A stretch of DNA of 64,000 nucleotides, taken from Eledone cirrhosa (Eukaryota). The position numbers were made by a program, and so were the translations under genes. Every line of letters begins with the position of its first letter. The stretch's first letter is position 1. Location of the stretch: contig OZ024741.1 in assembly GCA_964016885.1 (NCBI GenBank), positions 380,246,001-380,310,000 of the forward strand. Reading direction: 5' to 3'. Shown here in pieces: positions 13,108-64,000 of this stretch. The notes below the pieces were generated by a model. It was not told the DNA's origin and did no database searches. It saw only the letters and a list, made by a program, of their open reading frames with translations.

Positions 13108-13140
13108 TATATATATACATTGTAATAATAATAGTAATAA

Positions 13141-13400
13141 TTGTTTCTACTTTTGGCACAAGGCCAGCAATTGTTCCAGTGTATTACTGGTACTTTATTT
13201 TATTGATCCCATAAGGATGAAAGGCAAAGTTAACCTCGGCGGGTTTTGAACTCAGACTATAAAGGGCTGTAACTCTTTGCTGCAAAGCATGGTGCCTGAC
13301 CCTCTACCGATACTGCCAATCCACCGCCATAATAATAATAATGGTTTCTACGTTTTGCACAAGGCCAGCAATTATCCCAGTGCATTACTGGCACTTTATC

Positions 13401-13438
<38 letters not shown>

Positions 13439-13626
13439 TGTTACTACTTTACGCACAAACCCAGCAATTATCCCAGTGTATTAGTGGTACTTTATTTTAT
13501 CGAACCCGTAAGGATGAAAGGCAGAGTTAACCTTGGCAAGATTTGAACTCAGACTATAAAGGGGCGTAACTCCTTGCCGCAAAGCAAGGCATCCGATCCT
13601 CTACCGATACTGTCAATCCACCGTCC
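13141..13626 (-). mobile_element. Tandem SINE cluster in (TAA)n: full copy 13141-13328, 3' fragment about 13343-13400, full copy 13438-13626
   Basis: Same SINE family; each unit is preceded on + by (TAA)n. Confidence 0.88.
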
Positions 13627-13630
13627 TTCT

Positions 13631-14262
13631 ATTACAAAATCAAAGCTGAAGACAAGTGGTACATTCATCGCCCTGAGGCTGTAACTAAAGGAGAAAAAGT
13701 AACAATTCTCTGGGATTTTCCTGTACATACTGACAGGACCATAAAAGCAAATAGACCTGACATCATTATAAAAGATCAACATAACAAGGTATGTTTGTTG
13801 ATAGATATGAGCATCCCACGTGATCTCAATATCGCGGCAAAAGAATTTGACAAGCTTCGAAAATATAAAGATCTGCTTATTGAAATTGAGAAAATGTGGC
13901 ACCTCAAGGCCGTTACAATACCAGTGATTGTGGGAGGACTGCGAATGATCAAGAAAGGAACAGAACAATATTTGCGAATGATTCCTGGTTTACCCTCTCT
14001 GCATGATGTGCAAAAAATTGTATTGACTGGTACTGCACACGTATTGAGAAGAGCACTATCTCTGTAAGATTGATATCTCTTGTATTTACATATGCATATG
14101 CACATGTGTATATATGTATATTGTTTTTTTTTATTTATTTTCTTTTTTTATTATAATCAATGTGTTGTATTAACTGGCTTACCAATGCACACTGTGAATT
14201 TATTTGCCTTAAGTGTCAGGAAGACACTCGGCATACATCTCGGAAACAATAATGAAAGAAAA
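13631..14262 (+). mobile_element. R4/Dong family C, 5'-truncated (RLE C-terminus and 3' UTR)
   Basis: NRPDIII..LIDMSIP..KLRKY RLE motifs (ORF 13795-14067 and upstream); colinear with 41442-42049; ends in TAA repeats. Confidence 0.9.
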
Positions 14263-14280
14263 TAATAATTATTATTATTA

Positions 14281-14350
14281 TTTCTACTTTTGGCACAAGG
14301 CCAGCAATTATGCCAGTACATTACTGGTACTTTATTTTATCGACCCCGTA
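14281..14350 (-). mobile_element. SINE 3' half fragment
   Basis: tttctacttttggcacaaggccagcaatt..ctggtactttattttatcgacccc. Confidence 0.8.
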
Positions 14351-14352
14351 AT

Positions 14353-14866
14353 AGGCATCGATTCAAACTAATCAATTTACCACAATCTGAGAAATGGTAT
14401 GAGTAGAACCCAGAGTTGGTGATAGAAAACGATCAAGTGAAGGTGCTATGGGATTTTAGGATACAGACGGGCAAGAAATTAGAACACAATAAGCCTGACC
14501 TGGTGGTTTTTAACAAGGGAAAAAGATTGAACCTGACTGTATTTGACACGAGAGTGCAAGAAAAGGAGAGGAGAAAATTAACCGATACCAGGATTTAAAT
14601 TGGGAGTTAAAAAGGATTTGGAACTGTCTTGTGATCAAGGTCATCACGATTGTCATAGGAGGACTAGGTACTATCTCAAAGAGTTTCCAAGGATGGTTAA
14701 AGAAGATTAGTCCAAATTCATTTTTTGGAACACTTCAAAAGGCATGTTTGTTGGGAACAGCAAGAAACCTCCGATATGTGCTGAATATCTGAGGCTGCAG
14801 GTAGTGGCTTGATATTCATTTCAATAAACTTTCCAGTTAAATAGCATCAATGACTGAGACTCGGAG

Positions 14867-14867
<1 letters not shown>
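14353..14867 (+). mobile_element. R4/Dong family A (diverged subfamily) 3' fragment, A0
   Basis: [22 protein letters not shown], the family A 3' UTR, then (TAA)n. Confidence 0.9.
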
Positions 14868-14941
<74 letters not shown>

Positions 14942-14942
14942 A

Positions 14943-15475
14943 AGTCTCATAAAATTTCGGATCCATATTATATTGTTATATCGCTCAAATATTCAATTTT
15001 GTATTATATATTTTGTATTCAAAAAAGAAAATAGTTATAAATGGAAGAAAACACCCTCTGTCTACACTATATAGAACGGTCAAATAACAGCAATTTCACA
15101 AAACACCAGAAACTTGATGCACCACCTACCCCGTCACACTAAATATAACAGCCAGATAACGGCAATTTCACCACCACCACCACCAATCCCAGCATCATAA
15201 TAATAATTACTATTATTATTGTCTCAAGTTTTAACAAAGTGTTTAATTCCAATTTTACGGCAATATGTCAACACAATATATATTAAACATACGCAACACA
15301 AACTCATAGATACTACATATCACAAAACTCAGTAACGACAACGCCACCGCCGCCACCACTCCATCCATCATTGCTACCACTATCCCATCACCGCCGCCAC
15401 CACTCCTTCATTGTTACAACCACTATTCCCATGTTAACTTAAGATAGGGGAAGGTGACGGTATCACTAGACAAGG
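14943..15475 (+). mobile_element. Isolated fragment of the family A 5' leader
   Basis: Colinear with 19695-20260 and 30165-30500 (ttcggatcc..atcgctcaaatattcaa, ctctgtctacactatatagaac, cagccagataacggcaatttcacc). Confidence 0.8.
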
Positions 15476-15783
15476 GAGAGGCTAACAAAAGATATAAATA
15501 GATTGACTTAGTGACCTGGCCACCGGCCAAACGTCAACAACTATGGCACTGCTGGCTCACCCCTTCCTCACCAACAATATAAAAATCAGCAGCACCACCA
15601 CCGACATAGCCAACAACAATAACAGGCACATTCAGCAAAAAGTATATTATATTATTGTAATGCACTGGGTGATTGCTGGCCTTGTGCCTGGAGTGGAGAC
15701 AATTATTAATAAATTCATTCTTAAGCTCACATTAAGGAACCACTCATGATAATAACAATTTAAAAAAAACAACAAAAAGAAAA

Positions 15784-18700
15784 CCCCGTGACCAAGAAAT
15801 ACCGGGATGGCGGCCGGCGGGGAATAGCCGTGTCTCTAGAGGAGGACGACCCCTCTAGTCTTGGTTGACACTCGTTCTAGAAGTGGTAACACGAAATGAT
15901 TACCCCTTGGCGGATAAGAATAAAACGCGACAAAATAAAGTAAATGTCTAATGATAAAATCTCATACCGGATCGGCCGTCACCCGGGTAAAAAAGGGCCG
16001 CCTCCCTCAGAGAGGAATCAGACTGGGGTCGAAAAAACAGCTAATGGTTCAAAACTTCCCATAACCGGAATACTCCTACTGTTGGCCCTCCATGCTCACC
16101 ATCAAGAAATCCAAAGAAAAAGAGAGAAACATGGTCGAGGGAAGATAATATAGAAGTCCTTGAGGCTTTCTACACTGCCATGTACTACCCATCAAATACA
16201 TCGAATACAGAACAGACATATATCAACTGGAAAAAGAAACATCCCGAAAATAGAGGCTATATTGACAGTAACAAACTAGCCAATATACGAAGAAATATTG
16301 TAAGAAAAAAGGTTACTAACTGATATAGAGATTGATCAGATCAAGCTATTAGCACAAAGTCAGCGAAGGGAAAATTAAACATGTGTCAGTGAAAACGAGG
16401 TAAATTGTAACCCTTCGAATCCCAGGGTTGGGGCGGAATCACTGGCAACAGAACAAATTAAAGAAAGGATCGAAAAAGTGGAGGGAGTGCATGCTCAAGA
16501 TGAAACTCCAAATGAAAATAATGAGATCGTAAATGATAAAGAAATGAATGAGAATGAACTTGCCAACTTGAAGGATGAAATTATGATCGAATGGATGAAA
16601 ATGAAAGAATCTGACATGGGGCAACGAGACACCCTCCCTAAGATCCAGAACTCCAAACAGAACCAAAAGATAATACACAAGACTAACATAATTCTCAAAA
16701 ATATTACCATCACAAACAAACTAAACATTACTGATATAAATCATCTCTATTATGCATCGGCTAAAGTCACCACTCACTTATGTGGAGTGAAGATGAAAAA
16801 ACAAAGGAATTCCCACAAGAAATCTACTTGGCAAGAGAACATCAATCGCCAAATAAACCTTCTCCGATCTGACATAGAAATTATAACAAACTATAAAGTA
16901 GGTGAACATGTTAAACAAACTAAACTTAGAAAATTGAAAAGAAAGTACAGTATAAAATCAACAAGTGACATAGACATGCTGATAGAAATAATCAAGCAAA
17001 AAGTGTCGGCCAAAGCTACTCGTATAAGGCGCTTTGAAAAACGATCTAGATTCTATAAGGACAATATGTTCAAAAACAACCAAACAAACTTCTACAGAAA
17101 AATTGGTAAGTCAACAATAACTGCTAAATCAATACCACCCAAGGAGGAAGTGCAAGAATTCTGGGAAAAGATCTGGGCCGAAGAAAAAGTTCATAACATA
17201 CATGCCACATGGATAGACAGACAAATGAAAGATACAGCTCACCTTGAGGAACAAATATGGTAAAATATAACAGTTGAACAGTTGCGCTTGGCTCTAAGAA
17301 AAACCAGCAAAAAATCCCCAGGAAAAGACAAAATACAAAATTTTTGGATAAATGCCTTCACAGAGTCTCATGAGCTGTTAGCCTAACTTTACAATGAAAT
17401 AGTTGACCTATTTCCCATTGAGCAGAAAGGGTGTAAGCGAGGCTCATATGGCTGTAAGGATCAGCTTTTGGTTAATAAAATGATACTGGAAGATTGTCAT
17501 AATAGACACAAAAATCTATCGATTGCTTGGATAGATTATAAAAAAGCATTCGATAGTTTACCACACAGTTGGATTGAAAAATGTTTAGAGATTTTCAAAA
17601 TATCCCCCGTTGTCAGGAGGTTTTTGTCATTCAGTATGAAGACATGGAAAACGACACTCCTTTTGAATAGTGAAACAAAATCACTGGAAGCTGGAGAAGT
17701 TAATATTCATTGTGGAATTTTTCAGGGTGACTCTTTATCACCGCTTTTATTCTGCATCGCACTTATACCATTAAGTAAAATGCTCAATGAAACAAAACAT
17801 GGATATAAAGTCTATGACAAAACCATTAATCACTTGTTCTACATGGATGACCTGAAACTATTTGCAGAAAATGATGAACAATTGCAAGGGCTATTACCCA
17901 CTGTGGAGCAGTTCAGTGATGACATTAAAATGGAGTTTGGACTAGAAAAATGCGCCAAAGCAACGTTCACCAGAGGAAAGCTGCTGAAGAGTTCAGACAT
18001 TAATCTTGATCGGGGGAACGTGATAAGAGAACTTGATCAAGAAAAAACTTACAAATATCTAGGTGTTTGTGAAGGAGACGGAATCAAGCACTCGACAATG
18101 AGGGAAAGGATAAGGAAGGAATGTTACCGCAGAGTAAGAGCAATCTTAAAAACGGAAATGAATGCAAGGAATAGGATCGACGCCATAAACACGCTTGCCA
18201 TACCAGTAGTAACCTCCAGTTACAATGTCATCAACTGGTCAAGCACAGAGATCCGTAGGCTCGATACAAAAATTCGAAAATTTTAACCATGCACAGAATG
18301 CATCACCCTAAGGCAGATATAGATAGAATATATCTCCCTAGGAAAGAAGGAGTACGTGGGTTAGTCCAGTTAGACATTGCGTTGAAATCTGCAACAACAG
18401 GATTGGATGATCAAACTCGTTTTGAAACACGAAAGCATCAAAAGATCATATTCCATTACAAAAGATGCACAAAGATACAGTAATGGACTACAAATTTCAG
18501 AAGTCCCATTTACTGCTGAAATGGAAAACACAGAAAAAGTAAAGCAGGTAAAAGTAACTGCAAAGAAAGAACAGCTACAGAAACTGGCTAAGAAATGGCA
18601 AGAAAAGCCTCTGTATGGAAAATACCCAGAAAGAGCTAACAATCCTGATGTTGACAAAACTTTAACCCATCAGTGGTTGGCATCCTCTGAACTGAAATCG

Positions 18701-19503
18701 GAGACTGAAGGACTGATTATATCAGCACAAGTTCAGTGTCTGCCAACAAAAAATTACCAAGCCAACATAATAAAAAATGGATGCAGCCCATTATGCCGTG
18801 TATGCAAAAAACAACCAGAGACCATTGACCATATAATTTCAATGTGCAGTCCTATAGCTCCAACCGAATACCTAAACAGGCATGACAGAGTTGCACAATA
18901 CATACATTGGATAATGTGTAAGCATTTTGACCTGCCCCATCAAAAGAATTGGTGGGAGCATCAACCACCTCCCATACTTGAAAAAGATCACATCTCAATC
19001 TTGTAGAACTTTAGCATCCAAAGAGACCGATAAATAGATGCAAATAGACCTGATATAATATTGAAGGACTTTAAAAAGAGGGTATGCCTGCTAATTGATA
19101 TGTCTGTTCCAATAGACAAGAATGTATCTATAAAAACATTTGAAAAATTGAGAAAGTATAAGGACCTGGAGATAGAAATTGGAAAAATGTGGAAATTGAG
19201 AACTAAAACAATACCAGCGGTTGTAGGCGCTCTGGGAATGATACCTAAGGGGTCTAATGATTACTTATCGCAAATCCCAGGAAACCCGCGTATATGAGAA
19301 ATACAAAAGATAGTACTAATTGGAACTGCCCATATACTAAGGAAGATTCTGTCAATATAAGTACATCACAAGTCTAAACACTAAAGATGCATGTGTGAGT
19401 ATGTATGTTCTTACTTGAACATGGCGGACCTTGTTGTCTGTTGAGGTCACTGGTTGTGACTTGGTGATAACTCGTATGAACATAAAGCAAGATAAATGCA
19501 ACT

Positions 19504-19504
<1 letters not shown>
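15784..19504 (+). mobile_element. R4/Dong family B, near full length, degraded (5' boundary uncertain)
   Basis: ORF pieces over 15944-19352: [30 protein letters not shown] (RT); CRVCKKQPETIDHIISMC, RHD, NRPDII, LIDMSVP, KLRKY (CCHC and RLE). Stops, frameshifts and an internal deletion near 17400. Ends in (TAA)n. Confidence 0.92.
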
Positions 19505-19565: not shown

Positions 19566-22500
19566 GGGGAAGAAGCTGCACATGGTGGATGGAAGGTCGT
19601 GAAATCGCTCCCGTAAGTTTTGCTTTTTAACATATTTGAATCAATTGTGAAATAGCAATTCTTAGTACAAATGATACATAAGGCATGCGACTTGAGTCTC
19701 AGAAAAATTCGGATCCATAATATATTGTTATATCGCTCAAATATTCAATTTTGTATTATACATTTTATATTCAAAAAAGAAAATGGTTATAAATGGAAGA
19801 AAACACCCTCTGTCTACACTATATAGAACAGCCAAATAACAGCAATTTCACCAACACCAGAAACTAGATACACCACCTACCCCATTACCCCTCTGTGTAC
19901 ACTAAATACAACAGCCAGATAACGGCAATTTCACCACCACCACCACCAATCTCAGCATAATAATATTAATTACTATTATTATTGTCTCAAGTTTTCACAA
20001 AATGTTTAATTCCAATATTAAGTAAAAAAATGTCAACACATATACGCGACTAACCCCATAGATTCACCGATCAAACAAAAATACAGTCTATTCAACAAAA
20101 CTCAGTAACGACAACGCCATCACTACAGTCACCGCCGCTGCCACCCATCCATCATTACTACCACTATGCCATCACCGCGGCCACCACTCCTTCATTGCTA
20201 CCACCGCTATCCCCCCATTACCTTCTGTTAACTTACGAAAGGGGAAGGTGGCTAACACTAGACAACATTAATAAACAAGATTAATATTTAATTTTGGACC
20301 AGGAATGTTAGAGTTGAAAAGCAGAAAAATGGCAAAATGACTAAATAACTAAAGATAATTTCACCACCAACACCACCACCACTACCACGATGAAAACTCT
20401 GGTCAAATCGACTCAACCGCTATTTCTACTCCAACTTCAACACCATCACTACAGTACTACGATAACATCACCACCACCACTGCCTCATTATCGCTACCGC
20501 CGCTATTCTCTCCCACAACCTCCTGCTAGTTGCTGCAAGCACAGTACCGCGACCACCATCACCACCACTGCCTCATTATCACTACCGCCGCTATTCTCTC
20601 CCGCTACCCCCTGCTACATCGTAGTGTCCCCACTAAAAGAGGAAGGCATCAAAATATATAAATAGACTGAATTGATGACCCGGTCAAAATCAAAAAACCA
20701 AAAGTCAAAATCAAAGAAGCACAGCAACAACGAAAAACGTAAAGAAAAGAAAAATGAAGAGAAAAACAAACAGACGGACAGAGAAGGGAAGGGAAAAACT
20801 AAGTCAGACATTCAAATATTACATTACAATGAAACTTATGCTTATTCATTTTTTTTTTTTTGGGGGGGGGGGGGTTGCTTGTTTGTTTGTTTGTTTATTT
20901 ATGTTCGTCTACATCGTGATAATGCCACACAAAAATTACCGGAGATGATGAGGTCACCGGTGGTTATGTAACCATACATTCGCAAATCCTCGATAAGAGT
21001 GTTTAAATGTCGAACCTAAACAGTTCGAATAACGGTGAAATGGAGACTAGAATGTCATGTGACAGACTCTCACCCAACAGGTGCTTCCTGGCTCAGCAGC
21101 AGGGACCTGGCTGTCAACCAAATACTGCTGGTGTCGGAGGAGGAAGAAGAAGGAAAGGGAACAGAACCAACTGGACGAAAGAATTGAATAGAACTGTTAT
21201 GCAATGTTACCTGAAGGGTAACCCCAAGGAGAAAGGCTATAGGAAACGGATGCATAACATCTGGAACGAGATTGGTCTATTTAAATTAGATGAACAAAAA
21301 TTGGCCGGGCAGGCTCGGGTAATAAGAACTAATGGGTGGATAAGCGAGTTGGAACTGGAGGAACTGAGCAGAGAGATTAGCTTGGAGATGGAGAGTGGAG
21401 TATGCCAGGCAAACGAGCCAGTGGGAAATGAAGGTGAAGAGGTCGAGAGAACGGAGGAACCACCCGAAGCAGACAATGATCTGAATACTGAGATAAATAA
21501 TACCTGGAACAGAGATACGGCCACTGAGGAGATGAATGCTGACGGGCTAAGACAAGATTTGGTTGATATCCTAAACTTAGTGGTAGATGAATTGAACAAT
21601 GATAGTGGGAGACCTATGAACCTAAGATTTGTAGGCAGGAAAAAGGTGAAAGAAACAACAGCTAAGGTAAACAAAGTCATCCCATACCTTGAGGCCAGGT
21701 GCCTTCACAAGTGCAAAAATATCCTCAAAGCAACAGCAAATACGGTGCGGAAACTACTTGGTATAAAAGCGAGAGGAAACAACAGACAAGAAAGATCAGA
21801 GCCTTGGTGGAAGAAACGACTGAGTGGTCAAATCAGGGAAATGAGAAATAAAATTGGAAAGCTTGAGACCCTACTGAATGGGACACTAAAAAACATAGAC
21901 ACTAAAAATAGACTAGAAATAAAGTAAACACTAGGAGGAAAAAGCTAAATATTATCATAGAGGAACGGAAGCAACGCATTGTAGCAAAGAGTGCAAAAAT
22001 CAGGCGATACGAGAAGAGAGTCAGTCAGTATAGACAGAACCGCATGTTCGACAACAACCAGAAGATGCTGTTTGGACAGCTTGTTACAGGACGAACAGAA
22101 AGGATGCCAAAAGAAGTCACGTGGTACAAAGGACCAGTTACTTATTGATAAGATGGTAATGAGGAATTGCAAAAGGAGACACACTGGTCTTGCCATGGGA
22201 TGGATAGACTACAAAAAGGCATTTGACATGGTGCCTCATTCTTGGATCACCAAAAGCCTGGAGATCTTCAAGGTGGCAGATAATATCAGACAGTTGTTGG
22301 GCAAAAGTATGAAGTCCTGGGAAACAGAGTTAACATCAACTGGAGAATCCTTGGGAAGCGTGCAGATCAAGAGGGGTAACTTCCAGGGAGATAGTCTGTC
22401 CCCTCTGTTGTTTGTCCTTGCCATGATGCCCCTGACCAGTGTACTGCGAAGAGTGAGAGCAGGATACAGGTTGGGAAAGGGAGGGCTTACCATCAATCAC

Positions 22501-24020
22501 CTCCTCTTCATGGACGATCTTAAGCTCTTCGGGAAGAGTGAGAAGGAGTTGGATGTGCTTGTTGACACTGTCCGTATTTTCATCAATGATATATGTATGC
22601 AATTTGGTATTAGTAAGTGTGGAGTCATTGTGATGAAGAAGGGTATGTTGAGTAGAAGTAACGGAATCCAGGTACCAACCGGTGAGATGATAAAGGAAAT
22701 TGACTCTGAAGAAGGATACAAGTATTTGGGTGTTCTGGAGGCTGATGACATCAAGAATAAAAAAATGAAGGAATTGATAAGAACTGAATACATTCGGAGA
22801 GTAAGGAGCGTATTAAAGTCAGGTCTGAACAGTAGGAATGCCATAAGTGCAGTAAATTCCCGAGCTGTGTCTATTATTAGGTGCAGTGCGGGAATTCTGA
22901 GATGGAATGTTGCTGAACAAAAAGAAATGGATAGGAAGACTAGGAAGCAATTGACTATCTACAACATGTTCCATAACAGGAGTGATGTCGATAGACTCTA
23001 CTTAAGGAGATCTGAAGGTGGACGAGGTCTTATCAGCATAGAGGACTGTGTTCAGATGGAGAAAGACAACCTACACAAATACGTGACTGATAGTAAGGAG
23101 CCAATGCTCAGAACTGTACTGAAGGAGGGAACAATAGGCCAGGGGATGTCCAAGGAGGAAATAACATCAAGGAGAATGAGCAGCCTTCAGGAAAAATCCC
23201 TTCACAGTACCTCCTTTGAGAAAACTGAATTTAGAGATCCACAGACATGGAACTGGTTGAAAAGAGGAGACCTTAAAAAGGCTACAGAAGGAATGTTAAT
23301 GGCTGCGCAGGAGCAGGCCCTCAAAGCGAAGTGGTTGAAACACCATATTTACAAGGAGGAGGCTAGACCACTGTGCAGGATCTGTGGAGAGAGAGAGGAG
23401 ACTGTGACTCACATTGTATGCGAGTGTAAACACCTAGCCCAGACTCACTATAAGGGCTGGAGACATGATGTGATGGGCAGGGTGATCCACTGGCACCTAT
23501 GCAAAGTAAACAATTTACCACATTCTGAGAAGTGGTATGAGCATAAGCCAGAGTACGTGATAGAAAACGATCAGGTGAAGGTGCTGTGGGATTTTAGGAT
23601 ACAGACGGCGAAGAAACTGGAACACAATAGACCTGACCTGGTGGTTTTGGACAAAGAAAAAAGATCGTGCTTGATTGTGGATGTGGCCTGCCCATTCGAC
23701 ACGAGAATGCAAGAGAAGGAGAGGGAGAAAATTAACCGATACCAGGACTTAAAGTGGGAGGTAAAAAGGATTTCGAACTGCCATGAAGTCAAAGTGATCC
23801 CAATTGTCATAGGCGCACTAGGGACTATCTCAAAAAGTTTCCAGGATGCTTCAAGAAAATTGGCCCCTTCACGCTTTTTGGAACGCTTCAAAAGGCATGC
23901 TTGCTGGGAACAGCAAGAACCCTCCGATAAGTCCTGAATATCTGAGGCTGCAGGTAGTGGCTTGATATTCATTTCAAGAATCTTTCCAGTTAACTAACAT
24001 CAATGACTGAGATTCAAAGA
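19566..24020 (+). mobile_element. R4/Dong family A copy A1: about 1.4 kb leader plus ORF, with an internal deletion of about 0.5 kb near 22080
   Basis: (TAA)n on both sides; ORFs 21007-21927 and 21991-23937 are colinear with the 1130-aa ORF; FMDD, CCHC, RHD and PDLVV motifs present. Confidence 0.95.
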
Positions 24021-24298
24021 ATAATCATAATAGTAATAATAATAATAATAATATGTTTTTTTTATTAACCACAAGGGTTTACATAAAGTAGACATTAAGG
24101 ACAGTACAGGACAATACAGGACGGTACAAATGGGCATTTCTGCGTGTAAAAAAAACAGAGAATGAAATAAAATAACAAAGAAAAATTCCCCAATAGGGGG
24201 GAGACTTCCGAGGGACATTTGTTGAGAAAGGCCATTAAAAGACCACAGTGGCCCTGACCACCAGGGCAAGTGCACTCTCCCAGTTGTCCACCTTTAAT

Positions 24299-27720: not shown

Positions 27721-27754
27721 GTTGAAAAGGAGTGGAAAAGATGGGAAAGACCAC

Positions 27755-44500: not shown

Positions 44501-44563
44501 TATGTATATATATATATATATGGAGGAAATTATAGTTTACTTGAAGCATTGAGTAGTGAGGTG

Positions 44564-47978: not shown

Positions 47979-48037
47979 TAATAATAATAATAATAATAAT
48001 TTTAAAAAAAAGAAAAATAATAATAATAATAATAATT

Positions 48038-50523: not shown

Positions 50524-50555
50524 ATAATCATAATAGTAATAATAATAATAATAAT

Positions 50556-53500: not shown

Positions 53501-56171
53501 TGCATCTAAGATCCCGTTCCAGTTGCCCACTAACACTAAAGAGCGGGACGTTCCAAGAAAGGTCTCCAGACGCCGGAAGAAATCAGGCCGCCCTGCTCCT
53601 GTCAGGGCATAGACGCCCACTAACCTGAAAGCTTGCCCATCTCCGCTGGTCACGTCCAGCACCACCAGCTTACCTTCTCTTCTGGGTCCAGGAATATGGC
53701 CCGTATGGCAAGATCCAAACCTCTACGAAAAAGCACAGCAACTCCTCCCCCCGATCCCGGACGGCTGGGAGATGCGTACACATCGTAGCTGCCGAAGGTC
53801 GGTGCGAAGGCCCGAGCTTCGGAGATTCTGGTCTCGCTGATGGCCACTACATCTATGTTTAATGACCTGAGGTCGTTGAGCAGGTGGCCCTGCTTCCATG
53901 ACGACCCCAAGCCACGCGCATTTATGCTGCCTATTCTGAGTGAGGTCATGTTGAAAAGGAGTGGAAAAGATGGGAAAGACCACTTACCTTACTTCTCGTA
54001 GGGGAAGGACGGTTTTTCCATCCATTTCACTGCTTGTGGCCTGCTCAGGAAGGATGTCCTTATAAATCCTCCTGGAAAGTGCTTGTCGGAAAGCTCCGAT
54101 GTCTTTGGGGAATTTTTGTTTTAGTGTCATGTACGTTTTCTGTGTGATGCGAGTGATTTGTATGTGTGGAGGTGGTGTGAATTTTGGGATTGTTGTGTAG
54201 TCTTTTTCTGTGATGCTGGTGTTGTGTTTGATGTAGTGTAATAATTGCTTGTTGTTCAAATTTAATGCTGTGTAGTGTGTATCGTTTTGGTTGTTTTGTT
54301 TTGTTTGCGTTTGTTGTGGGCTTGTTTCTGATTCGCATTTTGGTGACTTTTGTGGTGTAGGTGATGGTGGTGTTGGGGTTAATGATGGTGATGGTGTTGG
54401 TGTTTGGGTTGATGGGGTTGGTGATGCTGGAGTGGATGGTGGCATATCTGTCCTAACTTTTTTGTTTGTTAATTTATTTGTTTCCCTCTGTATTTTGTTT
54501 TTGGAGGGGGAAGGAAGAGAATTTTTTTCTTTTTTGGTTTCTTCTTTTTTTTCCTGATACCGTTTCCCATTCCTCGTCGTCTCAATCTGTCTCCAGTTAT
54601 GATAGGCCGGGGAGTGGAAAATCCTCCACAGGCGTTAGATTTGGTTGTGGCGTGGTGGATGGTGTAGGCGCTGGTGCTAGTTCTGAAGCGTTGGGTGGTG
54701 GCAGTGTTGGTTTTGCTGGTGGTGGTGGTGTTGGTTTTGCTACTGTTGCTGGGGTTGTTGCTTTTATAGTTGCTTCTGTCGTTGCTGCTACAGTTGTTGC
54801 TGCCATCTCTGCTACTGGTGGTGTTGATGGTTGTGCAACTGGTGTGGGTAGGAGAGGTGGCCTCAACCTTTTAGCCTGAGGGCAGAAAGCCCTTAGGTGG
54901 GTTCCTTCACCACAAACGACACACCTAGGCCTTCTTGCTCGACAATTACGGTGAGGTGGCTGCCGTCAGTGAGGTCTATTACCTCTGGGATCTCCTCAAT
55001 GCTTCTTTGGTCCGCTTGGATCAGGAGCTCCATCCCAGATCCGGACCAGTTCTCCTGCTTTTCTTTTGCTATTGCTATTATCTTTGTGTTGGCTTCGATG
55101 CCGGCGAGGACGGCCACTATTAGCCAGGGAATTTCGATGGCCGGTGGAACGTGGGTCACCCTGATCTTTACGAGTCTCTGGCCACAATAGCTTGGGACGT
55201 GTGTGAAGTCGTCACTTCTTAATGGGGCCATGGAGTGTTCTCTAGCCTCCTCTGGTGTTTCAAAGAACACGTTCACGGTTCCATACTTCTACCCACGTCT
55301 GATGTGGGTTTTTCTTGCCCACAAATGTCCCAAAGCTTTTTGGATTTGGGACTCGGATGCCCGTTCCACTCGGCGCGATTTTACATTTATTGTTCGATAC
55401 GACACAGTGCATAGGCGCCGATGCTCCATTTTATTAGGTGGGGGGTGAGGCTGGCCCTGTACCCATCTTTCTTTACCATTTGTTTGGCATTTTCTAAATC
55501 CTCCTGAGTTACCGTAAATGCTTCGAACTGTTTTGCTACTCTGGCAAAACTCAGGGTGGTTTTTTAATGTCATTGTTGTTGTTGTTGCTATCGTTATTTT
55601 TGTTATTATTAATTTTAGTTTCAGTTGTGGTGGTGGTGACGTCAGTGAAATTCTGTTTGGGAGAGTCCATTTTTGTTGAAAATATTTCGACATCACGAGT
55701 TGATTTATTTTTTCCTTTTGTTTCTGTTGTCGCGGTGGTGGGAGGGGGGTGTTGTCGCGGTGGTGGTGGTGGCGGCTTTAACACCTGCAGTTATTGGTAA
55801 TGGCGGGAAATGAATGTCTGCCTGAGACAGATTTAAAATATTGCTAGTGCTTAAATTGTGTGTGTTGGCAGACGTAATATCATTTACAATGGTGGTGTCG
55901 GTGTGAGGTGTTAATTTGTGAGAAAGGCTTTCAGCTGCTTGGTGCAGTGGTGAATTAGCCATTTTTTTTTCAAAGAAATTTTTTGATAATCATAAAAGTT
56001 TAAATTTTGGGCACAAGACACCAATCTTTTGGGGTGTCCTTTTCGGAAAACAATGTATGTGCGCTTATATATAGTTAACAATAAAATTTTCCATAAATGG
56101 CAATTTTTTACACACGGAAATAACAAACCTTTGCGGAGCTCACGATGACACGATTTACTACGTAGGTCGCC
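50556..56171 (-). mobile_element. Tx1/L1-clade element copy T2, both ends present, internal deletion of about 250 bp near 52753
   Basis: Colinear with T1; ORF2 pieces from 53949 to 50801 (YADD in 50801-52177) and ORF1 pieces from 55962 to 53984. Confidence 0.95.
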
Positions 56172-56205
<34 letters not shown>

Positions 56206-56225
56206 TTAATAATAATAATAATAAT

Positions 56226-57430
56226 AAATCCTCGATAAGAGTGTTTAAATGTCCAACCTAAACAGTTCGAATAACGGTGAAATGGACACTAGAATGTCAT
56301 GTGACAGACTCTCACCCAACAGGTGCTCCCTGTCTCAGCAGCAGGGACCTGGCTGTCAACCAAATACTGCTGGTGTTGGAGGAAGAAGGAGAAGGAAAGG
56401 GACCAATCTCTAAGTAGATCTGAGGGTGGAAGAGGTCTTATCAGCATAGAGGACTGTGTTCAGATGGAGAAAAACAACCTATACAAATACGTGACCTATA
56501 GTAAGGAGCCAATGCTCAGAACTGTACTGAAGGAGGGGACAGTAGGCCAGGGGATGTCCAAAGAGGAAATAACATCAAGGAGGAAGAGCAGCCTTCAGGG
56601 AAAATCCCTTCATAGTACCTTCTTTGAGAAAACTGAATTTAGAGATCCACAGACATGGAACTGGTTGAGAAGAGGGGACCTCAAAAAGGCTACAGAAGGA
56701 ATGCTAATGGCTGCGCAGGAGCAGGCCCTCAAAGCGAAGTGGTTGAAGCACCATATTTACAAGGAGGAGGCTAGCCCACTGTGCAGGATCTGTGGAGAGA
56801 GAGAGGAGACTGTGGCTCACATTGTGTCCGAGTGTAAACACCTAGCCCAGACCCACTATAAGGGCTGGAGACACGATGTGATGGGCAGGGTGATCCACTG
56901 GCACCTGTACAAAAGTAAACAATTTACCACACTCTGAGAAATGGTATGAGCATAGGCCAGAGGCGGTGATGGAGAACAATCAGGTGAAGGTGCTGTGGGA
57001 TTTTAGGATACAGAGGGACAAAAAACTGAAACACAATAGACCTGACCTGGTGGTTGTGGACAAAGAAAAAAGATCGTGTCTGATTGTGGATGTGGCCTGC
57101 CCGTTCGACACGAGAGTGCAAGAGAAGGAGAGGGAGAAAATTAACCGATACCAGGACCTAAAGTGGGAGGTGAAAAGGATTTGGAACTGCCATGAAGTCA
57201 AAGTGATCCCGATTGTCATAGGCGCACTGGGGACTATCTCCAAAGGTTTCCAGGGATGGTTAAAGAAAATCGGCCCCTTCACGCTTTTTGGAACGCTTCA
57301 AAAGGCATGCTTGCTTGGAACAGCAAGAACCCTCCGATACGTCCTGAATATCTGAGGCTGCAGGTAGTGGCTTGATATTCAATCCAACGGACTTTCCAGT
57401 TAACCAACATCAATGACTGAGATTCAAGGA
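56226..57430 (+). mobile_element. R4/Dong family A copy A5, internally deleted (about 2.3 kb missing near 56405)
   Basis: The first ~180 bp of the leaderless form is fused to the [11 protein letters not shown] region. Confidence 0.93.
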
Positions 57431-57450
57431 ATAACAACAATAATAATAAT

Positions 57451-57937
57451 AAATCCTCGATAAGAGTGTTTAAATGTCCAACCTAAACAGTTCGAATAAC
57501 GGTGAAATGGACACTAGAATGTCATGTGACAGACTCTCACCCAACAGGTGCTCCCTGGCTCAGCAGCAGGGACCTGGCTGTCAACCAAATACTGCTGGTG
57601 CCGGTGGAAGAAGAAGAGAAAAGGGACCAGAACCAACTGGACGAAAGAGTTGAATAGAACTGTTATGCAATGTTACCTGAAGAGTAACCCCAAGGAGAAA
57701 GGCTATAGGAAAAGGATGCATAACATCTGGAACGAGATCGGTCCTATCTCAAAATGTTTCCAGGATGGTTAAAGAAAATTGGCCCCGCCCCGCTTTTTGG
57801 AACACTTCAAAATGCATGCTTGCTGGGAACAGCAAGAACTCTCCGATACGTCCTGAATATCTGAGGCTGCAGGTAGTGGCTTGATATTCATTTCAACAAA
57901 CTTTTCAGTTAACTAACTTCAATGATTGAGACTCAAA

Positions 57938-57939
<2 letters not shown>
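57451..57939 (+). mobile_element. R4/Dong family A copy A6, about 490 bp, internally deleted (about 3 kb missing near 57743)
   Basis: The leaderless 5' end is joined at gagatcggtc|ctatctcaaa to the last ~200 bp of the element. Confidence 0.92.
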
Positions 57940-57993
<54 letters not shown>

Positions 57994-57996
<3 letters not shown>

Positions 57997-60900
57997 TAAA
58001 CATACATTCGCCAATCCTCGATAAGAGTGTTTAAATATCGAACATAAACAGTTCGAATAACGGTGAAATGGAGACTAGAACGTCATGTGACAGACTCTCA
58101 CCCAACAGGTGCCCCCTGGCTCAGCAGCAGGAACCTGACTGTCAACCAAATACTGCTGATGTTGGAGGAAGAAGAAGAAGGAAAGGGGCCAGAACCAACT
58201 GGACGAAAGAATTGAATAGAACTGTTATGCAATGCTACCTGAAAAGTAACCCCAAGGAGAGGGGCTACAGGAGACGGATGCATAACATCTGGAACGAGAT
58301 TGGTTTATTTAAATTAGATGAACAAAAATTGGCCGGGCAGGCTCGGGTAATAAGAACTAATGGGTGGATAAGCGAGCTGGAACTGGAGGAACTGAGCAGA
58401 GAGAATGGCTTGGAGATGGCGGGTGTAGTATGCCAGACAAGCGAGCCGGCGGGAAATGAAGGTGAGGAGGTCCTGAGAACGGAGGAACCACCCGAAGCAG
58501 ACAATGATCTGAATACTGAGATAAATAATACCTGGAACAGAGATACGGCCACTGAGGAGATGAATGCTGACGGGCTAGGACAAGATACGGTTGACATCCT
58601 AAATTTAGTGGTAGATGAGTTGAACAATGATAGTGGGAGACCTATGAATCTAAGATTTGTAGACAGGAAAAAGTTAAAAGAAACAACAGCTAAGGTAAAC
58701 AAAGTCATCCCATACCTTGAGGCGAGGAGTCTTCACCAGTGCAACAATATCCTCAAAGCAACAGCAAATACGGTGAGGAAACTACTTGGTATAAAAGCGA
58801 GAGGAAACAACAGACAAGAAAGAGCAGAGCCGTGGTGGAAGAAGCGACTGAGTGGGCAAATCGAGGAAATGAGAAATGACATAGGAAAGCTTGAGTCACT
58901 ACTGAATGGGACACTAAAAAACATAGGCACTAAAAATAGACTGGAAATAAAATACAAAACTAGGAGTAAAAAGCTAAATATTATCATAGAGGAATTGAAG
59001 CAACGCATTGTAGCAAAGAGTGCCAAAATCAGGCGATACGAGAACAGAGTCAGTCAGTATAAACAGAACCGCATGTTCGACAACAACCAGAAGATGCTGT
59101 TTGGACAGCTTGAGGGGAAAGAAAGAGGCAACGACTTGGTCCCTGGGGCGGAACAAGCTAAAACATTCTGGAGAGGAATATGGGAGCAGGATGTTAGACA
59201 CAATGCCCAGGCAGGGTGGATTGAGACAGTACAGAGGGAGATCGGTGAGCAGGCACAGCAACAGACTGATTTGAGTATCACAGTTGAAACTCTTAAGGGG
59301 CAAGCCAAAAAACTAACCAACTGGAAATCACCAGGCCCAGATGGTGTGCAGGGGTATTGGATTAAACATTTAACATCCCTCCACCCGAAGCTGACGGCCA
59401 TGTTCAATGACTGCTTGGTGTCGGGTGAGGTGCCAGAGTGGTTGACAAAAGGTACCACAGTTCTGATAATGAAAGACCGAATCAAGGGTAATGATGTTAC
59501 CAACTATAGACCTATCACATGTCTGCCCGTAATGTGGAAACTGTTGACGAGCATTGTGTCTGAGGAAATCTACCATCACCTCCACACAAACAACTTGTTG
59601 CCGGACGAACAGAAAGGATGCCGAAAGAAGTCACGTGGTACAAAGGACCAGTTGCTTATTGATAAGATGGTAATGGGGAATTGCAGGAGGAGACACACTG
59701 ATCTTGCCATGGGATGGATAGACTACAGAAAGGCATTTGACATGGTGCCTCATTCCTGGATCACCAAAAGCCTGGAGATCTTCAGGGTGGCAGATAACAT
59801 CAGACAGTTGCTGGGCAGGAGTATGGGGTCCTGGGAGACAGAGTTGACATCAACTGGAGTATCCTTGGGAAGCGTGAAGATCAAGAGAGGTATCTTCCAG
59901 GGAGATAGCCTGTCCCCTCTGTTGTTTGTCCTTGCCCTGATGCCCTTGACCATTATGCTGCGAAAAGTGAGAGCAGGATACAAGCTGGGAAGGGGAGAGC
60001 TTACCATCAATCACCTCCTCTTCATGGACGATCTTAAGCTCTTCGGGAAAAGTGAGAAGGAGTTGGATGTGCTTGTTGACACTGTCCGTATTTTCAGCAG
60101 TGATATATGTATGCAGTTTGGTATTGGTAAATGTGGAGTCATTGTGATGAGGAGGGGTAGGTTGAGCAGAAGTAACGGGATCCAGATACCAACAGGTGAG
60201 ATGATAAAGGAAATTGACTCTGAGGAAGGATACAAGTATTTGGGCGTTCTGGAGGCTGATGGCATAAAGAACAAAAAAATGAAGGAATTGTTAAGAACTG
60301 AATACATTCGGAGAGTAAGGAGCGTATTGAAGTCACATCTGAACAGCAGAAATGCCATAAGCGCAGTAAATTCCCGAGCTGTGTCTATTATTAGGTACAG
60401 TGCGGGAATTCTGAGATGGAATGTTGCTGAACAAAAAGAAATGGATAGGAAGACTAGGAAGATATTGACTATCTACAACATGTTCCACAAGAGGAGTGAT
60501 GTCGATAGACTCTACCTAAGGAGATCTGAGGGTGGAAGAGGTCTTATCAGCATAGAGGACTGTGTTCAGATGGAGAAAAACAACCTATACAAATACGTGA
60601 CCTATAGTAAGGAGCCAATGCTCAGAGCTGTACTGAAGGAGGGGACAGTAGGCCAGGGGATATCCAAGGAGGAAATAACATCAAGGAGGAAGAGCAGCCT
60701 TAAGGGAAAATCCCTTCATAGTACCTTCTTTGAGAAAACTGAATTTAGAGATCCACAGACATGGAACTGGTTGAGAAGAGGAGACCTCAAAAAGGCTACA
60801 GAAGGAATGCTAATGGCTGCGCAGGAGCAGGCCCTCAAAACGAAGTGGTTGAAGCACCATATCTACAAGGAGGAGGCTAGCCCACTGTGCAGGATCTGTG

Positions 60901-61535
60901 GAGAGAGAGAGGAGACTGTGGCTCACATTGTGTCCGAGTGTAAACACCTAGCCCAGACCCACTATAAGGGCTGGAGACACGATGTGATGGGCAGGGTGAT
61001 CCACTGGCACCTGTGCAAAGTAAACAATCTACCACATTCTGAGAAATGGTATGAGCATAGGCCAGAGGCGGTGATGGAGAACAGTCAGGTGAAGGTGCTG
61101 TGGGATTTTAGGATACAGACGGACAAAAAACTGGAACACAATAGACCTCACCTGGTGGTTGTGGACAAAGAAAAAAGATCGTGCCTGATTGTGGATGTGG
61201 CCTGCCCGTTCGACACGAGAGTGCAAGAGAAGGAGAGGGAGAAAATTAACCGATACCAGGACCTAAAGTGGGAGGTGAAAAGGATTTGGAACTGCCATGA
61301 AGTCAAAGTGATCCCGATTGTCATAGGCGCACTGGGGACTATCTCCAAAGGTTTCCAGGGATGGTTAAAGAAAATCGGCCCCTTCACGCTTTTTGGAACG
61401 CTTCAAAAGGCATGCTTGCTTGGAACGGCAAGAACCCTCCGATACGTCCTGAATATCTGAGGCTGCAGGTAGTGGCTTGATATTCAATCCAACGGACTTT
61501 CCAGTTAACCAACATCAATGACTGAGATTCAAGGA
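57994..61535 (+). mobile_element. R4/Dong family A copy A7, leaderless, ORF uninterrupted
   Basis: (TAA)n on both sides; contains ORF 58068-61460. Confidence 0.96.
58068..61460 (+). CDS. R4/Dong-clade retrotransposon protein, 1130 aa (N-terminal domain, RT, CCHC, restriction-like endonuclease)
   Basis: N-terminal WTKELN..EQKLAGQARVIRTNGW; RT motifs WKSPGPDG, YRPITCLP, DYRKAFD, QGDSLSP, FMDD, YKYLG; [21 protein letters not shown]; RLE P(H)LVVVD..DVACP..KINRY. Confidence 0.95.
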   Translation: METRTSCDRLSPNRCPLAQQQEPDCQPNTADVGGRRRRKGARTNWTKELNRTVMQCYLKSNPKERGYRRRMHNIWNEIGLFKLDEQKLAGQARVIRTNGWISELELEELSRENGLEMAGVVCQTSEPAGNEGEEVLRTEEPPEADNDLNTEINNTWNRDTATEEMNADGLGQDTVDILNLVVDELNNDSGRPMNLRFVDRKKLKETTAKVNKVIPYLEARSLHQCNNILKATANTVRKLLGIKARGNNRQERAEPWWKKRLSGQIEEMRNDIGKLESLLNGTLKNIGTKNRLEIKYKTRSKKLNIIIEELKQRIVAKSAKIRRYENRVSQYKQNRMFDNNQKMLFGQLEGKERGNDLVPGAEQAKTFWRGIWEQDVRHNAQAGWIETVQREIGEQAQQQTDLSITVETLKGQAKKLTNWKSPGPDGVQGYWIKHLTSLHPKLTAMFNDCLVSGEVPEWLTKGTTVLIMKDRIKGNDVTNYRPITCLPVMWKLLTSIVSEEIYHHLHTNNLLPDEQKGCRKKSRGTKDQLLIDKMVMGNCRRRHTDLAMGWIDYRKAFDMVPHSWITKSLEIFRVADNIRQLLGRSMGSWETELTSTGVSLGSVKIKRGIFQGDSLSPLLFVLALMPLTIMLRKVRAGYKLGRGELTINHLLFMDDLKLFGKSEKELDVLVDTVRIFSSDICMQFGIGKCGVIVMRRGRLSRSNGIQIPTGEMIKEIDSEEGYKYLGVLEADGIKNKKMKELLRTEYIRRVRSVLKSHLNSRNAISAVNSRAVSIIRYSAGILRWNVAEQKEMDRKTRKILTIYNMFHKRSDVDRLYLRRSEGGRGLISIEDCVQMEKNNLYKYVTYSKEPMLRAVLKEGTVGQGISKEEITSRRKSSLKGKSLHSTFFEKTEFRDPQTWNWLRRGDLKKATEGMLMAAQEQALKTKWLKHHIYKEEASPLCRICGEREETVAHIVSECKHLAQTHYKGWRHDVMGRVIHWHLCKVNNLPHSEKWYEHRPEAVMENSQVKVLWDFRIQTDKKLEHNRPHLVVVDKEKRSCLIVDVACPFDTRVQEKEREKINRYQDLKWEVKRIWNCHEVKVIPIVIGALGTISKGFQGWLKKIGPFTLFGTLQKACLLGTARTLRYVLNI

Positions 61536-61546
61536 ATAACAATAAC

Positions 61547-61584
<38 letters not shown>

Positions 61585-61585
<1 letters not shown>

Positions 61586-61761
61586 TGTTTCTACTTTAGG
61601 TACAAGGCCAGCAAGTACTCAGTACATTACTGGTACTTTATTTTATCGACCCTGTAAGGAGGAAAGGCAAAGTTATCCTCGGCTGGATTAGAACTCAGAC
61701 TGTAAAGGGACGTAACTATGCTAGAAAGCATGGCATCGAACCCTCTACCGATACTGCCAAT
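61585..61761 (-). mobile_element. SINE in the (TAA)n tail of A7
   Basis: Same SINE family; its head is clipped where it meets A8. Confidence 0.87.
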
Positions 61762-61763
61762 TA

Positions 61764-62031
61764 ATGGGAGTTAAAAAGGATTTGGAACTGCCATGGGATC
61801 AAGGTCGTCCTGATTGTCATAGGAGCACTAGGTACTATCTCAAGGAGTATCCAAGGATGGTTAATGAAGATTAGTCCAGCCCAACTTTTCGGAATACTTC
61901 AAAAGGCATGCTTGCTGGGAACAGCAATAAACCTCTGATACGTCCTGAATATCTGAGGCTGCAGGTAGCGGCTTGATATTTATTCCAACAAATTTTCCAG
62001 TTAAATAACATCAATGACTGAGGCTCAAAGA
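61764..62031 (+). mobile_element. R4/Dong family A (diverged subfamily) 3' fragment, A8
   Basis: Shares variants with A0 (gggagttaaaaagg, gaagattagtcc) and carries the family A 3' UTR. Confidence 0.88.
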
Positions 62032-62033
62032 AC

Positions 62034-62068
<35 letters not shown>

Positions 62069-62070
<2 letters not shown>

Positions 62071-64000
62071 CTTTCTTTATTAACCACAAGGGTTTACATA
62101 AAGTAGACATTAAGGACAGTACAGGACAATACAGGACGGTACAAATGGGCATTTCTGCGTGTAAAAAACAAGAAACGGAGTATGTAATAATAGAACAATG
62201 AAAAAATTTCCCAATAGGTGGGAGACTTACGAGGGACATTCGTGGAGAAAGCCCATTAAAAAGCCACAGTGACCCTGACCACCAGAACAAGTGCCCTCTC
62301 CCAGTTTTCCACCTTTAATTTACAGACACATACACAGAGTAGGCCCATTCACTCGGGCCATTCTTGCCTCTCTCACCCATCTTTCAACAAAATGCTGGGA
62401 AGAGTGCACTTCCCTTTCTACCCTGATTTTCCTTTTCAAATGAAATTTGAAAATGTTAATCAGGGCATCACCGAAGAGGTAAGTGCTCGTCTTCAGACCT
62501 TTCTAACGTGTCCACCATACTATCTCTTTCGCCATGGCAACCAGACAGATAAAAACTGCCTGCCATTCCAGGCTAAAGGAAGAGGGCGGGGCAATCCTCA
62601 CGATGGACTCAGCTGATAGCTAGATCCGTCCTACACGCGACAGCAGGTGTTCGACATAAACTCACAAGTCAGCAATGCTCGGACACTGGACGAGTGCGTG
62701 CTGGATGGTTTCGTCGCCCTGCTCGCATCTCGGACATGCCCGGCTGACGGCACCTCCATGCCTGTAGAGTTTATCCCGAACTGGCAAAGCTCCTCGGTAG
62801 CACTGCCAGACCAGGGATTTCTGGAAGTTGTCCGTAGGCCCCGGCCCGAAAGTTCTTCCGAAGAGATTGGCTAGTTGATTTGAGTCGACGCCTAGAGTTT
62901 CCCCAAGTACGTCGTCGTTCTTCCCCTCCACTAATCCTCTATAGAACGCCAAGGTGGAGTTTCCACCGATCACATTGCCCGATTGGTCGAGGGCTGTGAG
63001 TGCCTGAAGACATTCCAGTTTCGAAGCGCTCCCTCTCGGTCTCCGCTTGACCCAGGAATGCAGCTCCGTCAAGGAGACGAGCTGGGGAAAGACGCGTCTA
63101 GCAAACGGAGACCACACCTGATCACCGTTGAGGAAGACGTGGGGATGTCGTAGCCTGAGCGCGTGTCTGCGCATCATCAGCCACCACATTCCCAGCCCTC
63201 CACGTAGCGGTTGTTGATAGCAGATTGACCACCTGACCATCGGAGACGTCCCTTACACAAAGCGAAAGAGAAAACGCTCCAGGGCAATCAGGTGGGGCTT
63301 AGGACAAGGTACGACTGTCAGGCGGTAGTAGATGATGGACGCGATATACGCGTTAGGTACCTCCGCTCGACCCTTCAGGGATAGCTACCTCTCGGCCCAT
63401 TTCTGGGTGAGAGAAGCCACCTTGCTCGTCACCTCGTCCCAGTTTTTGTCCGTCTGCAGATCCGGACCGAACCAGACCCCGATCAATATAACCGGTCCGT
63501 CCGTCCAGCGCCCGACGACGCTGTTGGACGGCATGGACCTGCCTCTCAAGGTGCCGAGCTGCAGGCCCACGGACTTTTCCTGGTTGATCATTAATCTTGT
63601 CACTGCTTCGTATTTTCTTAGTGTAGGGCCGATCACCTCGATGTGAATGGCGTTCGACACCACTAAGTTGACATCGTCCGCATATGCTGACAAGGATCTT
63701 TCGCATCCTAGTTCGCGCGGAACCTTGCTCAACGTCTCCAGTTTGTGCAGTAATGACTCGAGAGTCAATACGTACAATAGGGACGAGAGGGGACATCCAT
63801 GGCGGACCGAGCGCATGATGTTGAACGGTTCCGAAAGGTGACCGTTCACTCTCACCACAGAGCAGATGTCGCTGTGAATGCCAGCGATACAGCTCTGAAG
63901 ACGGGCCCAAATCCAGCCGCCCTCAGGACTGCCGCTAGTTAACGATGGTCGACCCTATCGAAAGCATTCGACTGATCTAAATTTATCAAGGACCCACCCG
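62069..64000 (-). mobile_element. Tx1/L1-clade element copy T3, 3' part (continues beyond the window), more diverged
   Basis: RHGCPLS and SAYADDV in ORF 63385-63858, CPRC..ETIQHALVQC, and a 3' UTR colinear with T1 and T2. Confidence 0.94.

Follow-up and report, generated by a model that had tools for sequence, protein, structure and literature searches.

How do tens of kilobases of retroelements come to be strung together through one trinucleotide repeat, with each kind of element facing its own fixed way? This question is raised by a stretch of 64,000 nucleotides, hereafter the window, from the 3.0-Gb genome assembly of Eledone cirrhosa (contig OZ024741.1, here C2, positions 380246001 to 380310000), in which Dong elements of three families (A, B, and C), a Tx1-like long interspersed nuclear element (LINE), and tRNA-head short interspersed nuclear elements (SINEs) are joined through (TAA)n tracts. 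The original prediction, made from the letters of the window, held that each insertion keeps TAA on both sides and so regenerates the target, allowing one microsatellite to grow into a multifamily array. Taken as a whole, the explanation that Dong and Tx1-like elements target (TAA)n on opposite strands, that chains grow at the resulting junctions, and that the SINE is carried along is in our judgment highly probable.

The window was annotated by self-BLAST and Tandem Repeats Finder (TRF), with natural copies serving as the reference sequences for all elements. The annotation bore out the predicted orientations: all 12 Dong copies or fragments lie on the plus strand, which is the TAA strand (12/12), and the three Tx1-like copies (3/3) and the SINEs of the chains (7/7) lie on the minus strand. 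Upstream of the Dong 5′ ends, the TAA tract is clear in 9 of 12 cases; 5 to 7 bp of TAA is left at the 5′ ends of the fragments at 14354 and 61765, and none at 13631. One lone (TTA)5 on the plus strand inside chain 1 (14268-14282) sits at a SINE tail. Elements and tracts together cover a fraction of 0.997 of positions 13123-42270 (chain 1) and 0.993 of positions 47746-64000, the part within the window of chain 2, which starts at 47746 and reaches approximately position 76220. Coverage collapses to 0.047 across the 5.5 kb between them (42271-47745), and is 0.039 in positions 1-13122. Because of this collapse we recognize two chains grown from two seed tracts, and the proposal that a single microsatellite seeded the whole 51 kb has to be given up.

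The repeat proved to be an insertion target well beyond the window. (Labels of the form L091 denote genomic loci fetched from the assembly, of which C1 and C2 are contigs.) Genome-wide, 1542/1655 exact matches to the 5′ 23-mer of Tx1 are preceded by ATTATTATT. The Kojima criterion of target specificity is more than 20% of flanks of one type (PMC4494074; this and all other sources are cited for part of their text), a level that the Tx1-like family exceeds. Among sampled copies, full-length Tx1 starts follow ATT in 30/30 cases and a tract in 29/30, TTA-family Tx1 3′ ends run into ATT-type sequence in 30/30, and a TAA tract lies before 30/30 full-length Dong A starts. The Dong A 5′ 21-mer has 480 genome-wide matches, and a strict tract pattern returns 302 rows, double counts included. 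Among the first 100 matches listed, 60 show the strict pattern; of the 40 that do not, 20 were inspected, with TAA within 30 bp in 15, TTA in 0, and neither in 5. At 5′-truncated junctions, a strict 12-bp tract was found for 34/54 Dong A, 17/26 Dong B, and 8/16 Tx1 copies, with 0 on the wrong strand, and 17/23 visible Dong C junctions, judged by eye, have a tract. The truncated-junction counts drop continuation pieces and matches below 85% identity or shorter than 150 bp, thereby losing many full-length Tx1 starts; like the polarity and SINE duplication counts below, they exclude window loci, duplicate fetches (L002-L021, L032-L051), L141, and identical junctions.

Since copies truncated at scattered points begin at tracts, the 5′ repeat is not borne by the element. 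For background, a tract within 24 bp upstream occurs at 73/60000 (TTA) and 52/60000 (TAA) random genomic positions, and sampling of the genome at even spacing (600 kb in total) gave 0.1% of the DNA for AAT tracts of at least 5 units (Dong, 1.3%; Tx1-like, 2.4%; SINE, 1.7%). Retention of the repeat on both sides was seen directly: in four hand-picked Tx1 copies (L165, L166, L167) marked tract units are duplicated on the two sides, with a length blurred by slippage. At L186, the Tx1 copy has no repeated marked unit. The original claim, that Dong A, B, and C and the Tx1-like LINE truly target TAA/ATT for insertion and do not merely carry it as a tail, is supported by these observations at full-length and truncated 5′ junctions alike.

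Outside the window, a survey took in 262 tracts at targeted loci and another 50 at random ones; its junction counts include 3′ tails, which do not count as independent evidence of targeting. Dong junctions lay on the TAA strand in 159/159 targeted and 7/8 random cases (166/167 together), Tx1 junctions lay on the strand opposite to Dong in 129/129 and 3/3 (132/132), and SINE junctions lay on the minus strand in 55/59 and 9/10. Orientation relative to the repeat is therefore not random, as the original prediction required. At C1 88.47 Mb (L336-L337), two chains of opposite sense stand 1 kb apart, which shows that polarity belongs to each tract and not to the region; per tract it is nearly absolute. 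The predicted clustering was also found. Among the matches listed on C1 1-94.6 Mb, 11 Tx1 pairs lie within 15 kb of each other versus 2.3 under the null (0/5000 shuffles), and 6/22 Dong ends lie near a Tx1 start, all in opposite orientation, versus 1.1 (2/5000 shuffles).

Not every copy in the window is a separate insertion. Tx1 24053 and Tx1 50556 pair as sisters (99/93, the Tx1 bootstrap not being settled) and have in common an imperfect tract with the adjoining Dong A, the two Dong A pieces 33557 and 56428 likewise pair, on short branches (88/96), and three window Dong A copies start at the identical base and have private changes in common. The 5′ junction of these three, at element position 1001, has four matches genome-wide, three in the window and one on C2 at 299.6 Mb. 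Local duplicates among the 12 Dong and 3 Tx1 copies thus reduce the independent events to at most 9 and 2, respectively, and the copies cannot be counted as 15 independent witnesses, as they originally were. Either recombination at the DNA level or reverse transcriptase jumping between templates on read-through RNA may have copied the blocks; the two are not told apart here. Two other readings of these duplicates were rejected: position 1001 is not a preferred Dong start, with truncation points scattered elsewhere and the junction occurring four times genome-wide, and a distant transfer of the Dong-plus-Tx1 unit is not indicated, since the flank of L182, which is sister to the duplicated Tx1 pair, is not the same.

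The two main partners carry unrelated nucleases. Dong families A, B, and C, which are 34 to 59% identical in protein sequence to one another, encode a reverse transcriptase (RT), a CCHC finger, and a PD-(D/E)xK restriction-like endonuclease (RLE), in Dong A within a single open reading frame (ORF) and in that order (RVT_1, E 5.8e-23). The frame at 58035-61460 comprises a putatively Myb-like N terminus, RT, CCHC, and RLE, with PD reading PH. The best PDB matches of the Dong protein are R2 proteins (E 3e-29), homologs at 50 to 70% identity carry uninformative names, and Exo_endo_phos, the apurinic/apyrimidinic (AP) endonuclease domain, had no match in the 1141-aa Dong A or 1185-aa Dong B frame. 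In the N terminus, W56 and W86 are invariant and a helical domain is confidently predicted for residues 51-115; the model reaches Z 5-6 with many Myb/SANT domains, a score no higher than that of unrelated entries, and searches gave no Pfam match and no Foldseek match at E 0.001. The N terminus would thus be a small helical domain that resembles Myb/SANT, though not decisively. Dong A and B, at 34% protein identity, have a common 5′ leader approximately 90% identical over 700 nt (14944-15473, 19566-20965, 30037-31017; L175), which suggests, from the sequences compared, an exchange of leader or promoter; the Dong B copy at 14944 lacks the first ∼130 nt of the leader common to Dong A. Rfam returned no ribozyme family in the Dong leader, only chance microRNA-type matches in AT repeats, no search having been aimed at the hepatitis delta virus type.

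The Tx1-like LINE has an ORF1 and an ORF2 encoding AP endonuclease, RT, and zf-RVT. Its endonuclease matches L1 endonuclease structures at E 1e-4 to 1e-3, and, in a tree built without a curated Tx1 reference, its RT is separate from plant L1 and joins (97/98) a group of fish elements and a fungal protein bearing the name "transposon TX1." One subfamily (L220 2481-4754 and seven other loci) has an unchanged ORF2 with another 5′ untranslated region (UTR)/ORF1 region and starts at (ATT)n. A sister family is associated with (TATC)n (L232, L258-L282, L313-L332): a strict TATC tract is found at 15/20 and GATA at 0 of the 5′ junctions, a sample that includes discovery and reference copies and a query holding part of the tail, which biases 3′ flanks. 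This family has a 3′ motif similar to that of the ATT family and, at L315, an open 1153-aa ORF2; a PDB search with its endonuclease gave no match. A possible CCHC knuckle in ORF1 appears in the TATC sister only (zf-CCHC, E 0.08), with none in four ATT-family frames.

The SINE, by contrast with the prediction that it too targets the tracts, behaves differently. It is approximately 190 nt long and has an A box at nt 11-22, a B box at nt 76-84, and no ORF; neither ARAGORN nor Rfam called a tRNA. A 5′-side tract was found for 3/52 random and 1/29 searched copies (4/81), whereas 254/1649 (15.4%) of Y|ATTAT sites lie within tracts. The SINE is thus rarer in tracts than its preferred sites predict (binomial P = 0.003), and we conclude that it is not tract specific and is, if anything, underrepresented there. 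Target site duplications of 8 to 22 bp were seen in 46/81 copies; among those readable from the first base, 36/42 start with ATTAT and 39/42 are preceded by C or T. The last 25 nt of the SINE are identical to Tx1 3′ ends at 15-17/25 positions, ungapped (8-66/200000 random 25-mers reach that), both 3′ ends carry a common motif, and site conservation extends over five letters after the SINE and at least 12 after the LINE. These similarities make it likely that the SINE is copied by this Tx1 lineage with a shorter site. The text seen of three papers names no Tx1 partner for an octopus SINE (PMC4758252, PMC4824008, PMC8869645). Inside Tx1 ORF1, near position 1926, SINEs occupy one ATTA site in three copies (L163, L179, L196), with different 5′ truncations and duplications of 12 to 19 bp, and this site is likely a SINE hot spot.

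How these pieces could fit together follows from target-primed reverse transcription, in which the strand nicked first is the complement of the element's sense strand. By this rule the Dong restriction-like endonuclease would nick the TTA strand, and the Tx1 AP endonuclease would nick the TAA strand, putatively at 5′-ATAAT/R-3′, a position read from the SINE sites. L1 nicks at a pyrimidine/purine step, and the proposed Tx1 nick is similar. The freed 3′ end would then pair with the (UAA)n or (AUU)n tail of the RNA. Each insertion would turn one tract into two, and later copies would land at the junctions; with two tracts left per insertion, chains would result, to which local block duplication would add. 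The SINE likely enters tracts in the Tx1 polarity without preferring them, needing only Y|ATTAT, and its tail may seed new tracts. Chain 1 has a direct repeat matching at 13/15 positions across its outer flanks (13108-13122 and 42268-42282), reached by 599/20000 random controls; it is only suggestive that the chain grew in the tail of a founder SINE at 42078-42269. The same search at the outer flanks of chain 2 found no direct repeat.

Several observations weigh against this explanation. A strict tract is missing at the truncated junctions of 20/54 Dong A, 9/26 Dong B, and 8/16 Tx1 copies; some of these junctions carry added bases or a tract that is short or imperfect, and others carry none. 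The searches return the best-scoring and hence young copies, to which the sample is biased. Polarity is broken by a Dong 5′ inversion at L255 and by five SINE junctions at tangled sites (L103, L256), and 2/11 close Tx1 pairs are opposite. The strands nicked by both enzymes are deduced from sequence, and the much weaker specificity of the SINE leaves room for another, unseen partner LINE. As to the nature of the exceptions, the inversion at L255 resembles twin priming, one opposite pair is an inverted join without a tract (L335, C1 46.02 Mb), and the other consists of neighboring tracts of opposite polarity (L336-L337).

Three other accounts of the chains were considered. If TAA/ATT were only a 3′ tail, the 5′ tracts would be neighbors' tails or the element's own 5′ end; indeed the repeat terminates every family, and a neighbor's tail accounts for many of the 5′ tracts. 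However, the scattered truncated copies still begin at tracts, many 5′ tracts adjoin unique DNA, and marked units are duplicated across Tx1 copies. Moreover, landing in a neighbor's tail in 50 to 90% of cases against a background of ∼0.1% is itself targeting, and we find this account hardly credible. Equally hard to credit is an assembly artifact: the window contains no N and sits in a 416-Mb contig, most copies are 2 to 17% apart with private indels, and shorter chains of like build occur at many other loci. Tandem repeats at 93 to 99% identity are admittedly hard to assemble, and no read or contig was seen across the junctions, three contig sets and one run of restriction site-associated DNA sequencing having given for 55900-58300 only short pieces from many copies, which speak neither for nor against the assembly. 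Growth mainly by local duplication, with polarity inherited and not rechosen, draws on the sister pairs described above (Tx1 24053/50556 with its one imperfect tract and Dong A 33557/56428) and on the three of four junction matches that fall in the window. Yet the participants include at least three Dong families (34 to 59% protein identity) and several Tx1 subfamilies (80 to 96% DNA identity), the fourth junction match, on C2 at 299.6 Mb, indicates that a truncation point can recur independently, and identical polarity is found at hundreds of unlinked loci with different flanks. These unlinked loci refute duplication as the main cause, an account that we therefore consider very unlikely; it remains a contributing cause.

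A closer competitor concerns Tx1 alone and supposes that the RNA tail is the chief determinant of its target and polarity: an endonuclease of low specificity nicks at AT/R, and a tail read through from the microsatellite beside the donor picks, by pairing, the repeat and the strand. Pairing of the tail with the nicked strand predicts the identical polarity. The (ATT)n and (TATC)n families, sisters with 66% ORF2 identity in a 100/100 clade also holding P0001, have an almost unchanged predicted target-contact hairpin loop (WTNRIGSSRSYLDR versus WANRSGSSRSYLDR), at a position that we take to carry over from L1 work, and both have AATAAA ∼8 to 10 nt before the tract. The SINE, with its five-letter tail, shows strong preference over about five letters only, and the LINE over 12. 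On the other hand, the endonuclease domains of the two families differ at approximately 40% of sites, and no switched copies were seen among the 30 sampled TTA-family 3′ ends. Exchanging the endonucleases of SART1 and TRAS1 changes specificity, SART1 being retargeted to TRAS1 sites (PMC7265360). We regard an RNA tail as the main determinant as possible but doubtful. A broader version, in which the RNA encodes the Tx1 target, the (ATT)n family, the (TATC)n family, and the SINE with its five-letter site all depend on one endonuclease that has hardly changed, and TAA tracts, with Dong on the opposite strand, are self-multiplying sinks, is offered tentatively and is rather improbable. If it were true, Tx1 specificity would be reprogrammable by a change of tail, an element would inherit its target from the read-through repeat, and TAA tracts would account for part of the transposon hot spots of this genome.

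Features of the window, with positions counted from its first nucleotide. The 12 Dong copies or fragments start where listed, two of them (56228 and 57453) in the patchwork.
Position	Strand	Feature
13138-13623	-	Three stacked tRNA-head SINEs with TAA tracts between them; left end of chain 1
13138-13328	-	SINE, full
13339-13403	-	SINE, 3′ part
13435-13623	-	SINE, full
13631-14265	+	Dong C 3′ fragment (RLE region and 3′ UTR); 5′ junction without TAA
14277-14351	-	SINE 3′ fragment
14354-14866	+	Old Dong A 3′ fragment, 83% to reference copy; TAA tract 14867-14943 behind it
14944-19504	+	Dong B, near full-length, ORF broken (RT, CCHC, PD-D/ExK)
19566-24033	+	Dong A, full-length with ∼0.5-kb internal deletion
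24053-29962	-	Tx1-like LINE, full-length (ORF1; AP endonuclease, RT, zf-RVT); (ATT)n flanking both sides
30037-34571	+	Dong A, full-length; head to head with Tx1 24053-29962 across (TAA)24
34596-38115	+	Dong A, 5′ truncated at element position ∼1001
38131-42061	+	Dong C, ORF broken
42078-42269	-	SINE, second subtype; right end of chain 1
42270-47745	.	Nonchain gap DNA with two inverted-repeat elements
43916-44094	+	SINE in gap, TTA on its own sense side
47761-47978	-	SINE, second subtype; left end of chain 2
48037-56171	.	Duplicate of Dong A plus Tx1 unit 19566-29962, imperfect tract included
48037-50536	+	Dong A, 5′ truncated, in duplicated unit
50556-56171	-	Tx1-like, full, in duplicated unit
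56228-57951	+	Patchwork of Dong A: duplicates of 33539-34887 and of 34569-34773, and a 3′ piece; extra internal Dong pieces start at 56410 and 57744
57995-61548	+	Dong A with open 1141-aa frame (58035-61460)
61586-61763	-	SINE within Dong A tail tract
61765-62035	+	Old Dong A 3′ fragment, 84%
62070-64000	-	Third Tx1-like copy, 3′ part; runs on to ∼68040 and ends at another TAA tract

Beyond the window, chain 2 (window-equivalent 68062-76220; L091, L092) holds a fourth Dong-like RLE fragment, 32 to 38% identical to A and B, and two more Tx1 subfamilies, one of which differs at its 5′ end and likewise follows ATT; polarity is unchanged in all of them. The gap between the chains contains two long inverted-repeat elements (43302-44272 and 44564-45813) that resemble miniature inverted-repeat transposable elements or foldback elements, with a SINE in one arm of the first. 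Fragments of a PIF1-type helicase (E 5e-29, 4e-16) lie at 1-1070; we take them to be, probably, a Helitron remnant. Elsewhere in the genome, TAA tracts beside Dong often pass into (GAA)n, and some Dong 5′ ends have short added or repeated bases (L350, L352, L137, L013 for both). Ends of unidentified elements adjoin TAA tracts on the Dong side (L136, L142, L130, and other clusters), which suggests that more families use these tracts.

Two unrelated nuclease classes thus converge on opposite strands of one dispersed microsatellite at genome scale, with exact matches alone numbering more than 1600 full-length Tx1 ends and ∼480 Dong A ends. This convergence offers a route by which transposon hot spots can arise, together with long chains that are hard to assemble and annotate. 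The ATT and TATC sisters, together with the SINE, also provide a natural experiment on the parts played by the endonuclease and by RNA-DNA pairing in LINE target choice. Our literature search returned no report of a Tx1 element targeting (ATT)n or (TATC)n, or of RLE and AP endonuclease elements on opposite strands of one microsatellite, although Repbase and supplements may hold such entries.

Comparison with known systems places each of these features. Members of the Dong/R4 clade target (TAA)n in insects, molluscs, and cnidarians (PMC7998251, PMC3812793), and Dong of Bombyx mori, DongAg, DongBg, and ostracod Dong1/2 likewise have a single ORF with RT, CCHC, and a C-terminal restriction-like endonuclease; here, in contrast, three to four divergent families use the tracts jointly with an opposite-facing AP endonuclease LINE, and families A and B have their 5′ leader in common. 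Dong-R4 and L1-Tx1 elements are abundant and recently active in Octopus vulgaris (PMC13282606), and octopus papers, in the text seen, describe transposon hot spots without naming targets. Microsatellite targets are known in the Tx1 clade, namely, (TC)n for Kibi, (TTC)n for Koshi, and (TTCC)n/(TTTC)n for crocodilian Tx1 (PMC4494074), and these elements agree with the one described here in having two ORFs, an AP endonuclease-RT, flanking repeat at either end, and a fixed orientation, whereas the targets here are (ATT)n and, in the sister family, (TATC)n. TRAS and SART of Bombyx occupy telomeric (TTAGG)n in opposite orientations and build arrays (PMC7265360, PMC10088271); both are R1-clade AP endonuclease elements at telomeres, whereas the nucleases here are unrelated (RLE versus AP endonuclease) and the microsatellite is dispersed. 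In crocodilians, SINEU follows the target-specific Tx1-Mar with weaker specificity and tandem insertions (PMC4494074); it has small nuclear RNA heads and poly(A) tails, whereas in the SINE described here the head is of tRNA type and the 3′-terminal ∼25 nt resemble the end of Tx1. Every ingredient of the system has a precedent, and the chains of E. cirrhosa extend known biology and overturn nothing.

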